Shown: positions 249 through 34,041 of the stretch, one piece after another | How positions within the stretch are numbered: the stretch's first letter is position 1 | Layout of the letters: each line of letters starts with the position of its first letter | Assembly: GCA_039190745.1 (NCBI GenBank) | Contig: JBCCXZ010000014.1 | Span: 186-64,185 of the forward strand | DNA: 64,000 bases | Reading direction: 5' to 3' | DNA from: Planctomycetota bacterium | GTDB lineage: Bacteria; Planctomycetota; Planctomycetia; Pirellulales; Lacipirellulaceae | Program-made: the position numbers and the translations under genes | Notes under the pieces: generated by a model | Database searches by the model: none | What the model saw: only the letters and a program-made list of their open reading frames with translations | Told to the model about the DNA's origin: nothing

Positions 249-317
249 GAGAAGACGCAGGACGCCGCTTCAAGACAACGGACCACTGACAACGGACGAC
301 GGACAAAGAGTTAAACC

Positions 318-8542: not shown

Positions 8543-10258
8543 GTGAACCTCGAAACCCTCACCAACACGCTCGTCACCGACACCGTCGACGTGAGCCTGC
8601 CGCTCTTCCGGCCGGAGCTCATCCTCTGCGGGACGATCGTGGTGCTCCTGCTGCTCCGCATCCTGCGGATTTCGCCCGCGCTGCCGCCGTTCTGGATGGC
8701 GCTCGCCGGCGCGGTCGCCGCGTTAGCGGCTTCGCTGCCGCTCGACGATGCCAGCGCTTGGAACACGTCCGAGCCGGTCGAGCTGTTCACGGGCATGCTG
8801 ATCTACGACTCGGTGACCGGCTTTATGCGGGTGTTCCTGCTCGCGTTCGCGGTGTTGTTCATCCTGCTGTCCCGGCTGACGGGGCTCGCGGACAACTCCG
8901 ACGGGCAGGACGTGTACACGCTGTTGTTGGGCTCGACGATCGGCATGTGCCTGATGGCTTCTGCGAATCATATGATGACCGTGTTCCTCGCCGTGGAGAT
9001 GGCGAGCGTGCCGTCCTACGTTCTGGCCGGCGTTGTCAAAGGGCGCCGCCGCAGCAGCGAGGCGGCCCTGAAGTACGCCGTCTACGGCGCCGGCGCCGCC
9101 GGGGTGATGCTCTACGGCATCAGCCTCTTGTGCGGCGTGCTGGGCACGGCACACTTGCCGACGATGGCTACGCGGCTCGTTGAGATGAACATCCCACAGG
9201 TCCTCGCCGACGGCGGCGGGGCGATGGTGGGGGCCCTTGCGCTCGGGGGCGTGATGCTCGGCGTCGGGCTCGCCTTCAAGCTCTCGGCGGTGCCGTTCCA
9301 CTTCTGGTGCCCCGACGTGTTCGAGGGCGCCTCGGCCGAGGTGGGCGGGTTCCTCTCGGTCGCGTCGAAGGCCGCCGCGTTGGCGTTGCTGCTGCGGGTT
9401 GGTCTTGGGCTGGGGCACTCGCCCTCGGAGATGGCCGCCGCCCCGGAAGCCGGCGGCGACGCCGTCGCCGTCCAGACGCTCGGCCTCAACGAATCCAACA
9501 CCCCCGCTGCCCGTGCCGTGGCCGATTCGTCAGAAGAATCCGCCGAGGCGCTCGGCACGCCGCTCGACCCGGTCCGCAAGTTCATCGTGATCTTGATCGC
9601 CCTGGTCGCCGCGGTGACCTGCACCTTCGGCAACCTCGCCGCGTACGGGCAGACCAACATCAAGCGGATGCTCGCCTACTCCACGATCGCCCACGCCGGG
9701 TACATGATGATGGCCGCGGCCGCGGCGGTCGCGCTGGTGGGGCAGGACGTGACGCTCGCCCGCACGGCGGTGTCGGGCCTGCTGCTGTACGCCTCGTTCT
9801 ACCTGTTCATGAACCTGGGCGCCTTCTCGATTGTCGCGGTGCTCCGCAACGCGATGCAGAGCGAGGAGATCCAGGACTACGCCGGGCTGATCCGCACCGC
9901 CCCCGCGATCAGCGTCGCGATGGTCGTGATCTTGTTCAGCCTGGTCGGCCTGCCGCCCCTGGCCGGGTTCATCGGCAAGTTCGCGATCTTCCGCTCACTA
10001 GTCCAGGCCGGCGGGCCGCTGATGATCTTTCTGCTGGTCACGGCCGGATTGAATACAGCCGTGTCGCTGGTCTACTACCTCCGTGTTGCGAAGGTGATCT
10101 GCATCGACAGCGAACCGGACACCCGCGGCACCGTCACGGTGGGCTTCCTGCCCGCCGCTTTCGTTCTGTTGGTGGCTTTGCCGGTGTTGGTCTTCGGCGT
10201 CATCCCCGAGTGGATGAGCGACTGGACCGTGCAGGCCGCTTCGCAGCTGTTGGGATAA
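8543..10258 (+). CDS. nuoN: NADH-quinone oxidoreductase subunit N (571 aa, with internal low-complexity insert)
   Basis: KLSAVPFHFWCPDVFEGASAEVGGFLSVASKAAA and MLAYSTIAHAGYMMMA blocks of NuoN/ND2; last gene of the cluster; GTG start. Confidence 0.9.
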   Translation: MNLETLTNTLVTDTVDVSLPLFRPELILCGTIVVLLLLRILRISPALPPFWMALAGAVAALAASLPLDDASAWNTSEPVELFTGMLIYDSVTGFMRVFLLAFAVLFILLSRLTGLADNSDGQDVYTLLLGSTIGMCLMASANHMMTVFLAVEMASVPSYVLAGVVKGRRRSSEAALKYAVYGAGAAGVMLYGISLLCGVLGTAHLPTMATRLVEMNIPQVLADGGGAMVGALALGGVMLGVGLAFKLSAVPFHFWCPDVFEGASAEVGGFLSVASKAAALALLLRVGLGLGHSPSEMAAAPEAGGDAVAVQTLGLNESNTPAARAVADSSEESAEALGTPLDPVRKFIVILIALVAAVTCTFGNLAAYGQTNIKRMLAYSTIAHAGYMMMAAAAAVALVGQDVTLARTAVSGLLLYASFYLFMNLGAFSIVAVLRNAMQSEEIQDYAGLIRTAPAISVAMVVILFSLVGLPPLAGFIGKFAIFRSLVQAGGPLMIFLLVTAGLNTAVSLVYYLRVAKVICIDSEPDTRGTVTVGFLPAAFVLLVALPVLVFGVIPEWMSDWTVQAASQLLG

Positions 10259-26455: not shown

Positions 26456-29400
26456 CTAGAGCCCCAAGATTTCACGCAACCGCTCGGGCTGAAGCGGCTT
26501 TACCAGATGGTGATCAAATCCCGCCTCACAGGCCCGCTCGAGGTCGCGTGCTTGTCCGTAGCCGGTGAGCGCGATCAATACCGTTTCGGCCGGCCCGATT
26601 TCCCGTGCACGCCGGGCAACCTCGTAACCGTCCATCTTCGGCAAGCCGATGTCGATGATCGCCGCGTCCGGTCGGTGCTTCTGGATCAGCTCAAGCCCCG
26701 CCGGCCCGTTCTCGGCGGAGTAGACTTCGACGCCCTCCAGTTCCAGCAACTGCCCGAGCATCACCCGGTTGTCTTCCTGATCTTCGATCAGCACGACGCG
26801 TCCAGCTCGCGGCTTAGGGGCTGCGCCATCGCTTGCTACGGGCTTTACGATCTCTTCGGGACTTTCAGTCGATGCCGCGATAGGCAGGCGTACTTCAAAA
26901 ACGCTGCCGCAGCCGGGCCCGTCGCTCTTGGCCGATACTGTGCCGCGGTGGAGCTCGACCAGCTTCTTGACGAGCGTCAGGCCGACGCCCATTCCGCCGG
27001 CGGCCCGGTCTAGTGTTTCGTCGGATTGGACGAACAGATCAAAGATCCGGTCTAGCACCATCGGGTTGATGCCGGAGCCTTGGTCGATCACGCGTATCAC
27101 GGCGTTGTCGCTGAACTGCGACATCTCCAGGATCACTCGTTCGCCGCCCGGCGAATACTTCACCGCATTGGTCAGCAGGTTTGCCTGCACCTGCTGCAGC
27201 CGGGCCGCGTCGCCCTGCACCCACAACGGGGCATCAGGCAGTTGCATGTCGATAGATACCCCGCAGCTCTCGCAGAGCGATTGGACCGACTGCACCGCGT
27301 CCTCCACGGTTTTCCGCAGGTCTAGCATCTCTTTGTCGAGGTTGATTTTGTCCTGCGTGATGCGGGAGACATCTAGCAAGTCGTCGAGTAGGCGCGTCAT
27401 GTGAGACGCCTGCCGGTCGATCGCCTGACGCGCGTTGACTGTCGTGGGGCCTTCGCTCTGATTACCGTTAAGTATCTGGGTTGCGGTCCGGATCGCGCTG
27501 AGCGGGTTCCGCAACTCGTGCGAGAGCATCGCAAGGAACTCGTCTCGGCTACGGATTTCTTCAGACTTTTGCAGTTCCTCGGTCTTTCGTTGGTGGATAT
27601 CGGCCACCGACCCAGTCATCCGCAGCGGGCGGCCCAACTGGTCGCGGTCGGTGATCGCCGTGTGGCGGAACCACCGGTATTCGCCCGAGCTGTGCAGCAT
27701 CCGGTACTCGAAGTTCTGGTGCAGGTCTACGAAGCACTGCTCCTGACTCGGCACGGTTGTCTGCTCGATCATCGCCCGGTCGTCCGGGTGCACGAGGGAA
27801 AGCCACTTGGAGTGGGTGGCGGAAAACTCCTGTTCTTCGTAGCCGAGCAACTGGTAACACTTCGAAGACCACCACATCGCGTCGCGATTCACGTCGGGCC
27901 AGTCCCAGATTCCGTCGCGGTTTGCGGCGATCACACGCTGGAAACGCTCTTTCTCACGGAGCACGTTTTCTTCGGCGGTAACCAGTGACGACACGTCCAC
28001 CAGCGAGAGCACAACTCCGTCAATGATTTCTCCGACCCTGTAGGGCAGCACACGCAAGAAGTAGTGCCGGCCATCGAGGTCGGAGACCTTGGTTTCACGC
28101 GGCTCTCCGTCCTCGAGCACGGCGCAGAGGTCTTCGGTCAAGCTGTCGTATCGGATCCGGTGCGAGAAAGTGCTGATCTTCCGGCCGACATCCTGTTCCA
28201 CGAGGTCGAACACCTCGGCCACTTGCGGGGTGAACTTGCGGATCGCCAGGTCCTGGTCGAGGAACACGATGGCCACATCGGTGCTCCGCAGCAGGTGCTC
28301 CATGTCCTGGTTCAGCTCGGCCAGCTCTTTGATCTTTTTCTGGTACTCCGCGTTGACCGTATACAGTTCTTCGTTGACCGAGTGCAGCTCCTCATTGGTG
28401 CTCTGCAGCTCTTCGTTTGAGGCTACCAGCTCTTCGTTGGTCGCCTGCATCTCCTCGTTGCTGGTTTCGAGCTCTTCGATCGTCGCTTGCAGATTCTCTT
28501 TGGTGTAGTGGAGCTCCTCCTCGAGATGAGAGACCTGCACCCGCGTCATCTCGCTCGCGTTGACCTCGTCCACCGTAACCCTAGCCGGCGGTTCATCGGC
28601 GACGGCAATCTTCTCGAACGTGATGAGGTAATTGGTCTCGCTCGTTTGCGGGTCTTCGATTGGGTCTATGCTCAGCCGGTACGCCCCGCTTCCTGGGCCA
28701 TCGTCCATGCGTACGCCCGCGAAGCTCAACGCCTGCCCGTGCTTGATGACCCGGTTAAGAGCCCCCGCGATCGAGGTCTTCGCGTCGGTGCGGAGCAGGT
28801 CTAGCAGGTCGTGCGACTGACGGCGGCCTTTCAGGCGTAAGAGGTCCTCGGCGCCACCGAACGTCTCTACGAGCTGGCGCTGATGGTTCACCAGCAGGCT
28901 CGGCGGCATGTGCTTGTCGAGTAGCCGGTCGTAGAGCCTCAGCATTGGGGGGTCCGGCAACGCCGCGTGCGGGCGGGGAACCGCCATATGCACCCGCAGA
29001 GCGTCGGGGCTCCGGTTCAGCGGCACTCGCATCTCCGCGGGCAGCCTGACGTCGCGACGCTTTGCGAAGACCTTGCAGTGCTCGTCCATCACGGCGAACT
29101 CGTCGGAGAGCTCGCCCGGCGTTTCGCTGCCGCCTAGCAGCAGCACCCCAGAGACACGCAGCCCGAAGTGGAACATCGCCAACGCACGCGCCTGAGCCTG
29201 CGGCTGGAAGTAGATCAGCAGGTTCCGGCACGTGATAAGGTGCAGGTTCGTGAAGGGCGCGTCTTTGATCACATTGTGTTGCGCGAAGACGACCATCTGC
29301 CGCAGGTCTTGCGACACCTGATAGCCGTCCTGCCGCTGGATGAAGTGCCGTTTCAGACGTTCCGGTGAGATTTGTGCTAAGCGGTTCTCGTCGTATAGGC

Positions 29401-30514
29401 CATGCCCGGCAAACTCGAGCGACGAGCGGTGGACGTCGGTCGCAAAGATCTTGACGCTGTTCGTGCGTCCCATTCGGCTCAGGGCTTCACGGAAAAGGAT
29501 CGCGAGCGAGTACGCCTCCTCGCCGGTGGCGCAAGCCGCCACCCAAACGCGGATTTCTTCATGCTCGCTTGCCTTCGCGATGAGCTCCGGGATAGCGTGC
29601 GTCTCGAGGTACTCGAACGGCTCGCTGTCCCGGAAGAACTGGGTCACGCCGATCAGCAGGTCCTGGTACAGCGCGTTGAGCTCGTCGGGGCTTGAACGCA
29701 ACCGCTCGACATAAGCGTCTAGCGTGTCGTCGTGCATGAGCGACAACCGCCGGTCGATCCTCCGGCTCACGGTGGTCGGCTTGTAGTGCGAGAAGTCGAT
29801 CTGGTGCTCCAAGCGGAGGAGCTCGAACACGGCCTCGACCCCCTTGAGCTTTTCGGGGTCGCCAACGCCCCAGTCCGACCTCGCCTCGCTGGGTGACCGC
29901 CGATACTCGGCCAGCACGCGCGCGATTTCGGAGGCCCCGAGGACGAGGTCCACCACGCCCGTTTCCTGCGCCGAACGGGGCATCCCGTCGAACTTCGCTT
30001 GCTCTGCGTCCTCGCAGAGCACGAGGCCGCCCGCTTCGTGGATATCCAGTATCCCGCGCGAGCCGTCGCTGCCTGTGCCGGAGAGGATGACACCCACAGA
30101 ACGCTCACCCAAGTCTCTCGCTAGAGATCGGAAGAAGATGTCGATCGGCAGCGTGAGGCCCCGCTGGGGGTCTTTGTCTGTCAGCAGGAGCCGCCCTCCG
30201 ACAATGGCCATTTCTTTTCGGGGCGGTAGGAGGTAGATGTGGTTTGGCTCTACCAGCATTCCGTCGCGTGCCGCCTGGATGGGCACACGCGTGTGACGGG
30301 CCAGCAGCTCGTCCATCATGCTCTTGAAATCGGGCGACAGGTGCTGGATGACCACGTAGGCCATGCCGGTGTCTTCGGAGACCTCGGTAAATAACTGCTC
30401 CAAAGATTCCAGACCGCCGGCTGACGCGCCGATCCCGACGACAAAAAAATCATCGGGGGTTCTAGATGAGGAGACTTCCGCGCGGGCCGGAGAGCCGGCT
30501 AGAGGCACATCCAT
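26456..30514 (-). CDS. CheB methylesterase-CheR methyltransferase-coiled coil-PAS-histidine kinase-receiver hybrid sensor protein (1352 aa)
   Basis: [14 protein letters not shown] (CheB); [17 protein letters not shown] (CheR SAM site); [33 protein letters not shown] coiled coil; PAS segments; H-box [16 protein letters not shown]; HATPase (GMGVGLTLV); receiver [10 protein letters not shown]...[13 protein letters not shown]. Confidence 0.92.
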
Positions 30515-30903
30515 GAGAATCGACTTGCATTTGTAGGCCTGGGGCGGAGCATCGCACCGCCAGCAGGCGGCGTCGCTCTATTCCCCGAATGCCTATGCTA
30601 TCGCTCGTGGACGCAAAAAACCAATTGGTCTTGCCGAATCGGCGCATAGAAAAACTGGTTCAGCGAAAGCCAGTCGGTAAACCGCACAGCGATGCTGCAT
30701 GTTCTAGGCAGTCCCTAACCGACGCCGCTGGGTTTCTATCGCGTAGCCTCGGTTCAAACTCTGAGGATACAGTGAGCCGTGTAGGGTGCGGTCAACCGAA
30801 ACCGCGAGTTTGGAAGGTCAACCAAAAAAGTCTCGATGCGTAGGACGCCCAGGGATGCTGCCCATCCAAGGCGGTCAGTGGACAACCTGACCCCGACCCT
30901 AAA

Positions 30904-31104
30904 TCAACCGAACGCACTTTCCGCCAGAGCTTCCTTGGTCAGCCCTTCCGGCAGAGAACGCTGAGTACGGATCTGTGCCCGGAGCTGCTGACAGTTTTCG
31001 CGTAGCACCTGCATTTCGGTCACCAGTCTCTCGTGTTGAAGCCTGTGAGCGATGAGGGTCGTTCGGAGTTGTTTGAGTTGCTTCAGGGATATCGCTGTTG
31101 CCAT
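30904..31104 (-). CDS. possible small coiled-coil protein (66 aa), weakly supported
   Basis: ORF only; heptad-like Leu/Gln/Arg pattern, weak RBS. Lies in the 1-kb spacer between the hybrid kinase and the CsrA-REC gene. Confidence 0.25.
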   Translation of the reverse strand: MATAISLKQLKQLRTTLIAHRLQHERLVTEMQVLRENCQQLRAQIRTQRSLPEGLTKEALAESAFG

Positions 31105-31580
31105 CTATGAATCATCCGTGAACCGGGAAAATCAAAAACGCCAGCCGGGGCTGATCAATCCATACACCCCAGGCGGGCAACCGTTGGGGCACTAATCTAT
31201 GTATCGGCTGGCCTATGTCAACTGCGGTGAATCCCCCAGTTGAACGAAGTGATGAGCAACACTTCTCGCCGCTTGGAGGCCGTTGATTTCATCTGCGCAA
31301 GCTAGCATGCCGGGCCGCGTATTCCCGTATTGACACACTCCGGCACAATCGAACACATTTGGTGCGCGACCCTCCGAGCTCACGGAGGCCGGCGGGTCGC
31401 TCCGACGCCATGGAATGGCGCTACGGAGTAACGGCACGGACGGGCCGATACAGAATTAAGACCCGCCGAATTGTGCTTTCGCGTTCTAGCTTCTCGCGTC
31501 GCGCACTCCATCGCCGGTCTGTTCGCACCCAAGCGCCCGGTCGCCAGGCGACCCCCGGGGCTGGTAAGGAGACCCAACCG

Positions 31581-32393
31581 ATGCTCGTCCTGTCCCGAAA
31601 CAAGAACCAAAAGGTTTGCTTTCCTGAACTCGGCATCTCGGTCGAGATCTTGGACGTCAAAGGCTCGAAGGTCCGCGTCGGCGTCGATGCCCCCATGGAG
31701 GTCCGCATCCTCCGCGACGAGCTTCAGAAAGGCGAAACCAGCCAGCCCGCCCCGAAGCCGCACGTTATCCGCCTCCCGCAAACCCTGCGGCACGAGCTCC
31801 GGAACGCCCTGCACGAACTCAGCCTGCGGCTGCACGTCTATCAGAAGCGGGCCGAGATCGACCGCAAGGCAGGTAGCGGCGCCGAGCAAAGGGCTCAGTT
31901 CGAGCCCGACGAGATGTTCGAGGCAATCGTCCGCAGGCTGGAAGGCCTCAGTTCTCATCAGGTCTTCTCAAGCGAAGGACTGCTGGCAGGCATTGGAAAA
32001 GCCCCCGACCAACCCGGCGTTGCCCTGGTAGTGGACGACGACGACAACGAGCGTGAGTTGCTGGCCGGTTTCTTGCGTATGTGCGGCTACAGGGTTGCCG
32101 CCGCGGGGGACGGCGTCGAGGCGATCCAATACCTCGAAGACAACGAGCCCCCTCGGGTCATTCTGCTCGATATGCAGATGCCCCGCTGCGATGGCGAGAG
32201 CTTCCTCCGACAGCTCCGCGAGAACCCACGATTCGATGAGACGAATGTCTTCGTCATCAGCGGTACAACGCCGGAAGAGTCGGGTATGACGCCCGAAGAC
32301 GGTTACACCCAATGGTTCGGGAAGCCGCTCGACCCCCGTCGCGTGGTCGAAGCACTCTCCAAAATCGAGGCCGCCTCCGCTTGTGTTGCCTGA
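31581..32393 (+). CDS. CsrA domain - DHp/H-box-like helical linker - response-regulator receiver fusion protein (270 aa)
   Basis: ATG at 31581 preceded by AAGGAG (31566-31571). N-terminus MLVLSRNKNQKVCF..ISVEILDVKGSKVRVGVDAPMEVRILRDEL aligns block for block with CsrA (MLILTRR...[26 protein letters not shown]). Linker contains RHELRNALHEL. C-terminus LVVDDDDNE...ILLDMQMPRCDG...VISG...GKPL carries all the receiver signature residues. Confidence 0.85.
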   Translation: MLVLSRNKNQKVCFPELGISVEILDVKGSKVRVGVDAPMEVRILRDELQKGETSQPAPKPHVIRLPQTLRHELRNALHELSLRLHVYQKRAEIDRKAGSGAEQRAQFEPDEMFEAIVRRLEGLSSHQVFSSEGLLAGIGKAPDQPGVALVVDDDDNERELLAGFLRMCGYRVAAAGDGVEAIQYLEDNEPPRVILLDMQMPRCDGESFLRQLRENPRFDETNVFVISGTTPEESGMTPEDGYTQWFGKPLDPRRVVEALSKIEAASACVA

Positions 32394-32526
32394 GGATCGC
32401 CCGCATGTGGCGCGTGCTCGGGGGACCGTGGAGAAGGGATTCTCACTAAGCACTGCAGGGAGCAGGGCGAGTTCACCGTACAGATCGGCACGCGCCGAGA
32501 GGGCCTGGGGTGCACCCCAGGCCCTC

Positions 32527-33720
32527 TCACTTTTTCTCCGGTTCAGCCCGCCGGGACTCCGAGATTGAAGCCGCCTCGGCTGCTGCGTTACCCCCGGCCA
32601 TCTCCGTGAGGTAAGTGAGTATTGCGTCCAGCTCTGCTTCTGGCACGTGCTTCATCGACGGCATCCGGCAATCGGCTCGGTAGGAAGAGGGGTTGAGGAT
32701 AAACGCCCGCAGATGATCAGCATTCCAGTAGGTCGTTACGCTCACCGGGGAATTCAGCTCTCCCCCCAAGAGCCCCCCGACTCCGTTGACCGCGTGGCAG
32801 GTCGCGCAGTGCTTTCGGAAGCCATCGAAGCCGGCAACCGCCTCGGGTGCATCGTGCGGGTAGGCCGCTTGGTAGAAGGCCGCGTCTTCCACCAGCCGCA
32901 ACCGCACGACGGCGTACGGCCAAGGCAGCTTGCCTGGGGTACCGGTCCTCGACTTCCAGACCACATAGTAAGGGGCCAGCGAAACCCGGTGTCCAGCTTC
33001 CACCGCGTCGACCCAGAGCCGGCCCGGCTTGGCTTCGGTGTCAGCGACCGCCACCCAGCCATCGGCAGCTAGGGCTTCCGACAGCAGCATCGTGGCTTTG
33101 TAGCCGTCGAGGCACTCGAATGCGATGCGTGTCGAGGTCGTGTCGACAGCTTCGAGATCGAACGCACCGCGCAGTACTTGGTCGAGGGGCACAGCCCGAT
33201 AGACTTTCGTTCGGTGGAACACCCCGTCGCGAGGGATCTCGACCTTCTCTGTCTCCGCCGCCCATTCGCTGGCCCGCGCTACTAAATCGTACGAGGCCAA
33301 CCCGGGGCTGGCTGAGGGCGGGATGACCATAGCGTCGAAAGCCTTTGATGCGATCATCCGGTACGAAGAGTCTCCGCCCATCGCCTCACGGAACCTGCGG
33401 TCAGCGTGTGCGAGCTTCTTTTGCGGAACAGCGTTCCAATCGTCGCGAGAGCGCCACTCGATCACTAGCCGGACTCTGCTTTTATCTTCTGCTGAGACCC
33501 AAACACGCTTCCCTAGAAAGCCTTCTTGCGATGCAAGCATCGCGGTCCAGATGTCCGAATCGTGACGCAGAAAGTCGGTCAATCGATTCGGCTCGACCTC
33601 GAAAGTCAGCTCCTCGATAACCGTATTGGTTTCTGCCGCGGCAAGACCACAGGGGTTCGCGAAGAGCGCACACAGGCCGAGCAAACACGCCCGGGCGACT
33701 GACTTGCTGCATGATGCCAT
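32527..33720 (-). CDS. secreted multidomain protein with C-terminal cytochrome c domain
   Basis: Start at MASCSKSVARACLLGLCALFA (signal); N-terminal ~100-aa ABM/dimeric alpha-beta-barrel-like segment; central domain of unclear family; C-terminal FRKHCATCHAVNGVGG...CRMPSM (CXXCH plus distal Met). Confidence 0.7.
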   Translation of the reverse strand: MASCSKSVARACLLGLCALFANPCGLAAAETNTVIEELTFEVEPNRLTDFLRHDSDIWTAMLASQEGFLGKRVWVSAEDKSRVRLVIEWRSRDDWNAVPQKKLAHADRRFREAMGGDSSYRMIASKAFDAMVIPPSASPGLASYDLVARASEWAAETEKVEIPRDGVFHRTKVYRAVPLDQVLRGAFDLEAVDTTSTRIAFECLDGYKATMLLSEALAADGWVAVADTEAKPGRLWVDAVEAGHRVSLAPYYVVWKSRTGTPGKLPWPYAVVRLRLVEDAAFYQAAYPHDAPEAVAGFDGFRKHCATCHAVNGVGGLLGGELNSPVSVTTYWNADHLRAFILNPSSYRADCRMPSMKHVPEAELDAILTYLTEMAGGNAAAEAASISESRRAEPEKK

Positions 33721-34041
33721 CGAGAACTTCCTCAACACATTTAGGAGCACAAGAGAAGGCCCGAACATCCTGCTAAGGGTAGCCCCGCGCGTCGAATAGG
33801 ACAGCTCAGGAGTCCGAAGTTTCCCTTAAGGTAAACAAGCCATAGGGACGTTTCGGCTTACTTCGCTTGCGGCGCTCCCTGCTTCTCTGCCAACTCGGTC
33901 ACGCACCGGCCTTACGATTGGCAGGGTTCTGACTTGCCGTGGCGTTGCGGCGCTGGGCTGCATATCGGACGATGGGGCTGAGCCCCGCCGAGAAAAGAAC
34001 CCGCACAAGAAGTAGAACGCAGTTCTAGATGATATCAAGCT

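Follow-up and report, generated by a model that had tools for sequence, protein, structure and literature searches.

A Planctomycetota protein family that joins a CsrA domain to an H-box helical hairpin and a receiver domain, with a proposed place at the end of a phosphorelay

The gene at positions 31581–32393 of a 64,000-nucleotide stretch of DNA from a Planctomycetota bacterium (GenBank assembly GCA_039190745.1, contig JBCCXZ010000014.1; the whole stretch is called the window below) encodes a protein in which a CsrA-type RNA-binding domain is followed by a helical hairpin with an H-box like that of histidine kinases and by a response-regulator receiver domain. This fusion protein is read here as a phospho-controlled, dimeric and self-regulating CsrA that would end a phosphorelay, with His71 of the hairpin likely serving as the second phosphorylated histidine of the relay (H2) or as a phosphatase site; the probability of this reading is put at about 0.6. 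CsrA is among the most widespread post-transcriptional regulators of bacteria, and its canonical form is a stand-alone dimer of 60–75 aa controlled by decoy small RNAs (sRNAs), FliW or CesT.

The three modules and the family that carries them

The CsrA/RsmA fold claimed for the N-terminus by an earlier, sequence-only reading of this DNA has been borne out by profile, sequence and structure searches. The Pfam CsrA model (PF02599) matches residues 1–50 with 49.7 bits (gathering score 27, E = 3.6e-13), as it also does all 45 of the 45 relatives checked. In the PDB, a sequence search finds Yersinia CsrA first (2BTI, 1.8e-6), followed by Escherichia coli CsrA (1Y00), RsmA (1VPZ) and the RsmE–RNA complex (2JPP). 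A fold search with the full-length AlphaFold2 (AF2) model returned receiver matches only; the CsrA matches came from a second, N-terminal model (residues 1–128), for which the best 15 Foldseek matches are all CsrA-family chains (template-modelling score, TM, 0.66–0.71; root-mean-square deviation about 2 Å over 47 residues; monomer). Conservation was counted over 82 species-level members of the family. Within the CsrA module, M1, L2, R6, A37, P38 and R45 are found in 82/82 members, G34 in 81/82 and E47 in 79/82, and the hydrophobic positions L4, V41 and I43 of strands beta1 and beta5 are conserved across the family. R45 is the counterpart of R44 of E. coli CsrA, the RNA-binding arginine for which a match had been proposed. 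Another nearly invariant element, F14–P15, is specific to the family and does not occur in E. coli CsrA. The NCBIfam CsrA equivalogs NF002469 and TIGR00202 score below their cutoffs (42.4 versus 73 and 40.8 versus 70.1, respectively). These scores, the length of 270 aa and the two extra modules mark the fusion protein as not a canonical CsrA. There is no second CsrA gene in the 64-kb window.

The receiver had been described as complete, and it is. Pfam PF00072 matches residues 149–259 with 62.4 bits (cutoff 30.2, E = 5.2e-17), so that the CsrA and Response_reg assignments both lie above cutoff, as the proposed Pfam check was to establish. The domain is modelled by AF2 in the full-length protein with a per-residue confidence (pLDDT) above 90, and Foldseek aligns it to RR468 and CheY with a TM of 0.88. 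All the catalytic residues are present: D153, D197, S/T227, K248 and, at the position of the aromatic switch, W245 occur in 82/82 members, so that the phospho-switch is complete. The motifs quoted from the sequence alone (DDDD, LLDMQMP, VISG and GKPL in the receiver, RHELRNALHEL in the hairpin) all stand where they had been placed. The position of the receiver at the C-terminus is unusual for a response regulator. The linkers on either side of the hairpin, residues 48–65 and 125–146, are variable and of low model confidence.

The middle module is the hairpin, in which RHELRNALHEL (residues 70–80) lies in the first of the two predicted helices. H71 and N75 are each conserved in 80/82 members, R74 in 75/82 and L77 in 79/82, which indicates that the H-box is under strong selection. 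The residue following the histidine (H+1) is acidic in just 45/82 members, and no proline follows Asn75, unlike in the H-box of HisKA kinases. In those kinases, Thr or Asn at H+4 is a phosphatase determinant, and Glu or Asp at H+1 is required for autophosphorylation. The retention of His, Arg and Asn together with a relaxed H+1 therefore fits a dimerisation and histidine phosphotransfer (DHp) domain devoid of autokinase chemistry, which could still act in phosphotransfer or as a phosphatase. Both members without H71 are second copies of tandem pairs, and their box is degenerate. Adjacent CsrA–hairpin–REC genes on the same strand are seen in locus L047 (5652–6470 and 6992–7774, both +), and in L048 two such genes on the same strand are separated by about 6.5 kb; in both pairs it is the first copy that shows the degenerate H-box (RKRLHTAAEEL), with the CsrA domain and receiver intact. 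One subfamily has therefore lost the histidine.

The hairpin resembles a DHp domain in profile–profile comparison. When the hairpin profile was aligned by hhalign with a profile of the DHp domains of the neighbouring kinases, the probability was 96% (E = 4.8e-9) and His71 fell on the phosphorylated histidine. The fusion's H-E-L-R-N-x-L thus aligns His-on-His with the partner DHp and keeps the Asn at H+4. It differs from HisKA (PF00512) in the missing HATPase_c domain, the relaxed acidic position at H+1, the lack of Pro after the Asn, a diverged second helix and a sub-threshold Pfam score; the Pfam model matches 31/45 relatives at E ≤ 1, the best at 6.5e-6. The H-box had been claimed from the sequence alone. 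The part of that claim concerned with a helical hairpin and a DHp-like histidine box has held, as has the quoted H-box of the neighbouring kinase; a Pfam HisKA match in the window protein itself was not obtained. No HATPase_c domain is found in the window protein, and just 22 residues separate hairpin from receiver. When residues 1–125 were searched against 1.84 billion cluster representatives, no kinase version (CsrA–DHp–CA, where CA is the catalytic and ATP-binding domain) and no longer architecture was found, the best 150 of 171 clusters all measuring 335 aa or less. Judged by its domains, the fusion protein lacks a CA domain and is not a histidine kinase.

This three-module layout is widespread. 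A scan in which each GTDB species was represented by one genome found full-length relatives in at least 516 species-level genomes, which answers the call in the sequence-only reading for a census of the architecture across Planctomycetota. Of the best 120 protein clusters, 119 contain both Pfam domains (CsrA and Response_reg) and measure 233–318 aa. Such recurrence is therefore not due to chance, and the gene is assigned by its relatives to a large Planctomycetota family. Planctomycetota appears in nearly all the names of the 80 relatives kept from the species scan, two bearing generic names only, and these relatives cover Pirellulales, Planctomycetales, Gemmatales and Isosphaerales. Cultured carriers include Blastopirellula marina DSM 3645, Bremerella cremea, Stieleria tagensis and Novipirellula herctigrandis, and also Aeoliella mucimassa; a Posidoniimonas strain is a further carrier. 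The B. marina locus lies at 1261443–1276189 of NZ_CH672376.1 and that of A. mucimassa at 4628514–4645311 of CP036278.1. Complete chromosomes are among the carriers, and several genomes encode two or more fusion paralogues. In one locus (L086), the fusion gene is followed at a distance of 1.4 kb by the gene for a canonical-type CsrA of 127 aa with a long low-complexity tail (MLVLTRKQNEKIRIGD..., 9154–9537, +), so classical and fused CsrA share one genome.

The gene, its leader and the neighbouring kinases

A protein identical to that of the window is present in NCBI, annotated as "MAG: response regulator [Planctomycetota bacterium]". Its start codon is secure for three reasons: AAGGAG at 31566–71 lies 9 nt 5' of the ATG; the N-terminus of every family member reads M-L-V/I-L-S/T-R, and the MLVLSR of the window protein is preceded by a conserved Shine–Dalgarno (SD) sequence; and the longer open reading frame (ORF) that overlaps it upstream, with a TTG start at 31359, is broken by non-triplet indels. 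This longer frame was rejected as coding, given the indels of 1 and 4 nt in its upstream stretch against the 85%-identical relative L001. A true start downstream of the CsrA domain, which would have removed that domain from the protein, is thereby set aside. The coordinates of the gene, its modules and its surroundings are collected in Table 1.

Table 1. Coordinates in the window of the fusion gene, its modules and nearby features
Feature	Position	Strand	Description	Basis
Complete gene, CsrA / H-box hairpin / receiver protein	31581..32393	+	270 aa; stop codon included	ORF and Pfam
CsrA RNA-binding domain	31581..31730	+	residues 1–50; beta1 MLVLSR, beta5 EVRILRDEL, R6, R45	Pfam
DHp-like helical hairpin	31779..31952	+	residues 67–124 (helix 67–96, turn, helix 109–124); no ATP-binding domain after it	AF2 secondary structure
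H-box RHELRNAL	31788..31811	+	residues 70–77; His71 codon 31791–31793; Asn75 at H+4	
Receiver domain	32019..32390	+	residues 147–270; acidic pocket D152–D155, D197 (codon 32169–32171), S227, W245, K248	Pfam
Predicted CsrA-type site, SD hairpin GGU-AAGGAG-ACC (GGUAAGGAGACC)	31563..31574	+	3-bp stem, A-N-G-G-A-G hexaloop, 9 nt 5' of ATG	
Structured 5' leader segment	31370..31470	+	four AYGGA motifs: 31382, 31410, 31423, 31436	
Conserved block TATTCCCGTATTGACA with TTGACA (-35-like) hexamer	31320..31335	+	about 250 nt upstream of fusion gene	
Intrinsic-terminator-like hairpin	32497..32528	+	14 bp, 11 GC, then T-run; 104 nt past stop	terminator scan
Partner hybrid histidine kinase	26456..30514	-	1352 aa; CheB-CheR-PAS-PAS-HisKA-HATPase-REC; divergent, about 1 kb away	Pfam
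Small divergent ORF	30904..31104	-	66 aa, coiled-coil-like; SD with ACGGAU hexaloop-type site; no Pfam match	

A hybrid histidine kinase is a conserved neighbour of the fusion gene. Among the 42 loci whose flanks reach 6.5 kb or more in each direction, a kinase of the CheB-CheR type occurs within 7 kb in 29, of which 15 place it upstream on the same strand, 9 downstream and convergent, and the rest in other arrangements, divergent ones among them. The CheB-CheR-PAS-HisKA-HATPase-REC layout recurs next to the fusion gene across Planctomycetota, and the linkage to a kinase is conserved far beyond synteny. Other kinases may stand in the same place: in B. marina the adjacent kinase is a DUF4118-HisKA-HATPase-REC protein instead of the CheB-CheR type, and PAS-HisKA-HATPase-REC kinases adjoin the fusion gene in L043, L058, L083 and L085, with a gap of 10 nt in the last. 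A C-terminal REC is fused on 45/52 of the neighbouring kinases. No histidine phosphotransfer (Hpt) domain is found by Pfam in the partner kinase of the window, and the only Hpt near a fusion gene in the annotated neighbourhoods is that of a hybrid kinase in L087. All partners appear to be soluble proteins. In the literature, no functional study was found on planctomycete CheB-CheR-fused hybrid kinases. The earlier proposal that the CsrA domain is wired to a two-component phosphorelay thus gains a conserved neighbour.

The SD region provides the link to RNA binding. Autoregulation had been guessed at from the GGA in the ribosome-binding site of the gene, and comparison of family leaders now lends it substantial support. 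Over 75 loci the SD consensus is Y-n-G-G-A-A-A-GGA-G-A-C-C-C, with A at -2 in 69/75, and the flanking positions covary: the pairs (-3,+4), (-4,+5) and (-5,+6) form a stem above all 1000 permutations, the first of them being U-A in 11 loci, A-U in 10, C-G in 8 and G-C in 3, and pairing is at chance in registers shifted by one. A stem of at least 3 bp is predicted in 61% of loci versus 38% of controls. The combination of a 3-bp stem and an A-N-GGA-G hexaloop is what we take to be the geometry of high-affinity CsrA/RsmE sites, going by the RsmE–hcnA structure 2JPP. Family genes have a GGA at -18 to -5 in 95% of cases, as opposed to 34% for 323 controls drawn from other genes of the loci. Farther upstream, ANGGA motifs in the interval from -250 to -25 amount to 2.13 in family leaders versus 0.70 in the 323 controls (Mann–Whitney p = 1.5e-20), an excess limited to about -200 to 0. 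The leader of E. coli csrA carries CsrA sites too, in keeping with its autoregulation.

In the window, the leader segment at 31370–31470 has a minimum free energy (MFE) of -52.4 kcal/mol (z = -5.3), contains the hairpin GCGCCAU-GGA-AUGGCGC at 31405–31421 and, in comparison with L001, is conserved better than any other intergenic block. AYGGA is under-represented in the window as a whole (144 found versus 228 ± 13 expected), with an average of one in roughly 890 nt on each strand, and three ACGGA motifs form another tight cluster at 278–303 (+). An Rfam scan of 30400–32600 detected no known RNA family in the leader; a weak BjrC68 match at 32468–32535 was dismissed, as it covers the terminator hairpin only. 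Further upstream, the core TTCCCGTATTGACA(C) of the conserved block at 31320–31335 is the same in the window and in L001, inside an otherwise diverged spacer. This block is a possible promoter of the fusion gene, and a scan for the sigma-70 consensus gave no full promoter on the + strand. On the downstream side, the terminator-like hairpin implies a monocistronic unit, and the fusion gene appears to be monocistronic. This hairpin sits between the fusion gene and a convergent ABM/cytochrome-c gene (32527–33768, -), and probably ends the transcription of both.

Several small genes accompany the family. The divergent 66-aa ORF of the window has homologues with 41–79% identity in L001/L005, L006, L007, L008, L017 and L021, always divergent and just upstream of the fusion gene, and the motif C-A(C/U)GGA-N-G lies on its SD in 6/7 distinct loci. 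Its family is limited to the closest subclade, and the ORF may be a co-regulated target or a partner. It was also considered as a homologue of the hairpin and rejected (hhalign 0.4%). Elsewhere, small genes of 83–112 aa intervene between kinase and fusion gene. The one in L009 (6511–6765, +), between the CheB-CheR kinase and the fusion gene, encodes a stand-alone hairpin that lacks the histidine (hhalign 95.7%, E = 1e-8); that of L086 (6508–6759, +) occupies the same intervening place and is hairpin-like by eye; and that of L004 (7485–7823, +) is linked to them by position and ORF clustering only. Such a stand-alone copy could heterodimerise with the H-box hairpin.

Proposed mechanism and rival readings

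In the mechanism proposed here, the hybrid kinase would autophosphorylate on its own histidine (H1) and then phosphorylate the receiver that it carries itself (D1). In the next step, the hairpin would provide with His71 a dimeric phosphotransfer site similar to Spo0B or ChpT (H2), from which Asp197 in the receiver of the fusion protein (D2) would be phosphorylated, and Asn75 at H+4 would give the hairpin the reverse, phosphatase capacity. Phosphorylation of the two receivers of the dimer would alter their packing on the hairpin and on the CsrA dimer, and the two RNA-binding faces would be opened or occluded as a result. The protein would thereby repress, or release, the translation of mRNAs with a GGA hairpin at the ribosome-binding site, including the one from which it is made, which would amount to negative autoregulation. 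The kinase signal would act directly on translation, in need of neither a decoy sRNA nor an antagonist of the FliW type. The H2 role of the hairpin is inferred because its histidine is invariant, no CA domain follows it and the neighbouring hybrid kinases carry no Hpt. The most specific form of the proposal is that the two genes encode a complete four-step phosphorelay, with H1 and D1 on the CheB-CheR kinase and with His71 and Asp197 fused to the CsrA dimer, phosphorylation gating the RNA-binding faces directly. In this full form the proposal is tentative, and we would sooner expect some part of it to fail than the whole to hold.

A number of observations weigh against the proposed mechanism. 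With respect to the hairpin, the hhalign match to DHp is limited to the first helix, the second helix failing to align; Pfam HisKA gives no match at E ≤ 1 on the window protein; and the hairpin by itself, run as a profile against the PDB, gives no significant match, the H-box of CpxA appearing at E = 0.78 (Foldseek with the N-terminal model likewise returns the DHp domain of HK853 only at E of about 4). With respect to the kinases, 13/42 fully flanked loci have no CheB-CheR kinase, one of them, L076, having no kinase next door, and in the separately annotated L087 no hybrid kinase lies closer than 3.6 kb, the one at that distance carrying an Hpt of its own. With respect to RNA, the GGA motifs of the leaders show no preference for unpaired positions in MFE folds (25% versus 37% overall); the claim of a GGA in a loop is therefore confined to the SD hexaloop, which is backed by covariation. 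The presence of a canonical-type CsrA alongside the fusion in at least one genome (L086) means that the leader sites may serve that protein. Finally, the variable, low-confidence linker at 48–65 offers no rigid path for a conformational signal, so occlusion or tethering as the mode of control is a guess.

The main rival of this mechanism differs from it only in the H2 role. Here the hairpin would be a dimerisation and docking platform and a dedicated H-x-x-x-N phosphatase, D197 would be phosphorylated by the DHp domain of the kinase or by acetyl phosphate, and the hairpin would set the lifetime of the signal. The equal conservation of N75 and His (80/82) beside a relaxed acidic H+1 speaks for it, as do the loci that lack an adjoining hybrid kinase and the Hpt on the nearest hybrid kinase of L087. 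On the other hand, 45/52 neighbouring kinases are hybrids and have no Hpt, so a relay would need an H2 somewhere, and a pure phosphatase could presumably retain its Asn in the company of a histidine free to vary. On balance this alternative is judged rather unlikely, and the relay with His71 as H2 is given some preference over it.

The opposite direction of flow has been considered as well. In this case CsrA would be the input, occupancy by an mRNA leader or an sRNA would alter the hairpin and receiver, and the protein, instead of repressing translation, would tune the output of the neighbouring hybrid kinase as a phosphate sink or connector responsive to RNA. The order of the modules invites the idea, since an N-terminal "sensor", a DHp and a C-terminal REC make up a hybrid kinase minus its ATPase domain, and a C-terminal receiver is atypical of response regulators. 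However, CsrA and hairpin are joined by a long and variable stretch with predicted disorder, whereas sensors pass their signals to DHp domains through helical linkers; no CsrA–DHp–CA kinase occurs among the best 150 of 171 related clusters; and the conserved predicted CsrA site on the gene's own SD suits a repressor. Taken together, these points make reversed flow improbable.

Still less credit is given to the view that the CsrA-like domain has ceased to bind RNA and is a mere interdigitated dimerisation module for a receiver protein with another, protein-binding output. The sub-cutoff NCBIfam scores and the family's own invariant F14–P15 could be cited in its favour, but the RNA-contact residues (L2, L4, R6, V41, I43, R45, E47 and the A37–P38 loop) are invariant or conservatively replaced in 82 species, and GGA sites are conserved in the leader and SD of the gene itself, which leaves this view very improbable. 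That the fusion is an artefact of misassembly, of a frameshift joining two genes or of a wrong start is refuted by the comparative data: nothing was found in its favour apart from the existence of the longer TTG ORF from 31359, whereas the same continuous ORF occurs in at least 516 species genomes, complete chromosomes and cultured strains among them, with an invariant MLVLSR behind a conserved SD and with non-triplet indels upstream against L001.

Relation to known systems and significance

The preferred reading, a CsrA controlled through a phosphorelay, combines features of several known systems. With CsrA, RsmA and RsmE the fusion shares the fold of its first 50 residues and the residues that contact RNA, and its predicted target is also an A-N-GGA hexaloop over a Shine–Dalgarno sequence; it differs in its 270 aa and in the covalently attached H-box hairpin and receiver. 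Another relevant group is that of the ANTAR regulators (AmiR, EutV, NasT and PdtaR), in which receivers likewise steer an RNA-binding output, so that the kinase signal acts post-transcriptionally. ANTAR regulators dimerise by means of a helical segment between receiver and output. However, their RNA-binding fold is unrelated, they act by antitermination at paired hexaloops and not by occlusion of the ribosome-binding site, they carry the receiver at the N-terminus and they lack an H-box. The closest parallel to the role proposed for residues 67–124 is found in Spo0B and ChpT. These dimers of helical hairpins have a His that accepts phosphoryl groups, lack autokinase activity dependent on ATP and stand between D1 and D2. 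They are separate proteins with a degenerate, CA-like alpha/beta domain, whereas the hairpin of the fusion is joined to the terminal receiver and to the output, and no degenerate CA-like domain of the Spo0B/ChpT type follows it, the receiver coming directly after.

The architecture is neither rare nor previously unseen. Databases already name proteins of the family "response regulator" or "CsrA", and a paper of 2007 (PMC2222644, citing Galperin, 2006, J Bacteriol 188:4169) counts CsrA, together with ANTAR, among the RNA-binding outputs of response regulators. The REC + CsrA regulators of that census have the same domain combination as the fusion, and REC + CsrA is thus an architecture already catalogued, though uncharacterised. 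The statement in the sequence-only reading that this is not a characterised architecture can accordingly be kept in one sense only: no experimental study of the CsrA–hairpin–REC architecture was found in the accessible literature, while the combination as such had been catalogued earlier, as PMC2222644 indicates. In a 2025 review, E. coli CsrA is tabulated as an "orphan RR with a C-terminal RNA-binding domain" (PMC12471899), an entry that looks like a misreading of census tables in which CsrA appears among the outputs of response regulators. High prevalence of CsrA in Planctomycetota is reported by a survey of the diversity of CsrA from 2026 (PMC13443453); its sequences are trimmed to the Pfam model, and no mention of fusions was found in it. 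The H-box module, the coupling to hybrid kinases (especially those of the CheB-CheR type), the SD hexaloop with its ANGGA-rich leader and the accessory small genes appear to be undescribed in the accessible literature.

To our knowledge, every characterised control of CsrA is a titration, whether by sRNA sponges, FliW or CesT. Should the proposed mechanism be true, a CsrA phosphorylated through its receiver would link two-component signalling directly to translation and would represent a third mode of control for Csr systems, beside decoy sRNAs and protein antagonists (FliW and CesT). With its H-box but no ATPase domain, the fusion also offers a case from nature in which a DHp-type module for phosphotransfer or phosphatase activity is joined to a receiver of its own, and the whole would constitute a compact, engineerable switch from signal to translation. 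Since the family is large, has cultured carriers and apparently soluble partners, the hypothesis is directly testable. For the Planctomycetota themselves, this mode of control would be one used by most of the phylum, often as several paralogous copies, and would account for part of the high prevalence of CsrA genes reported there (PMC13443453).

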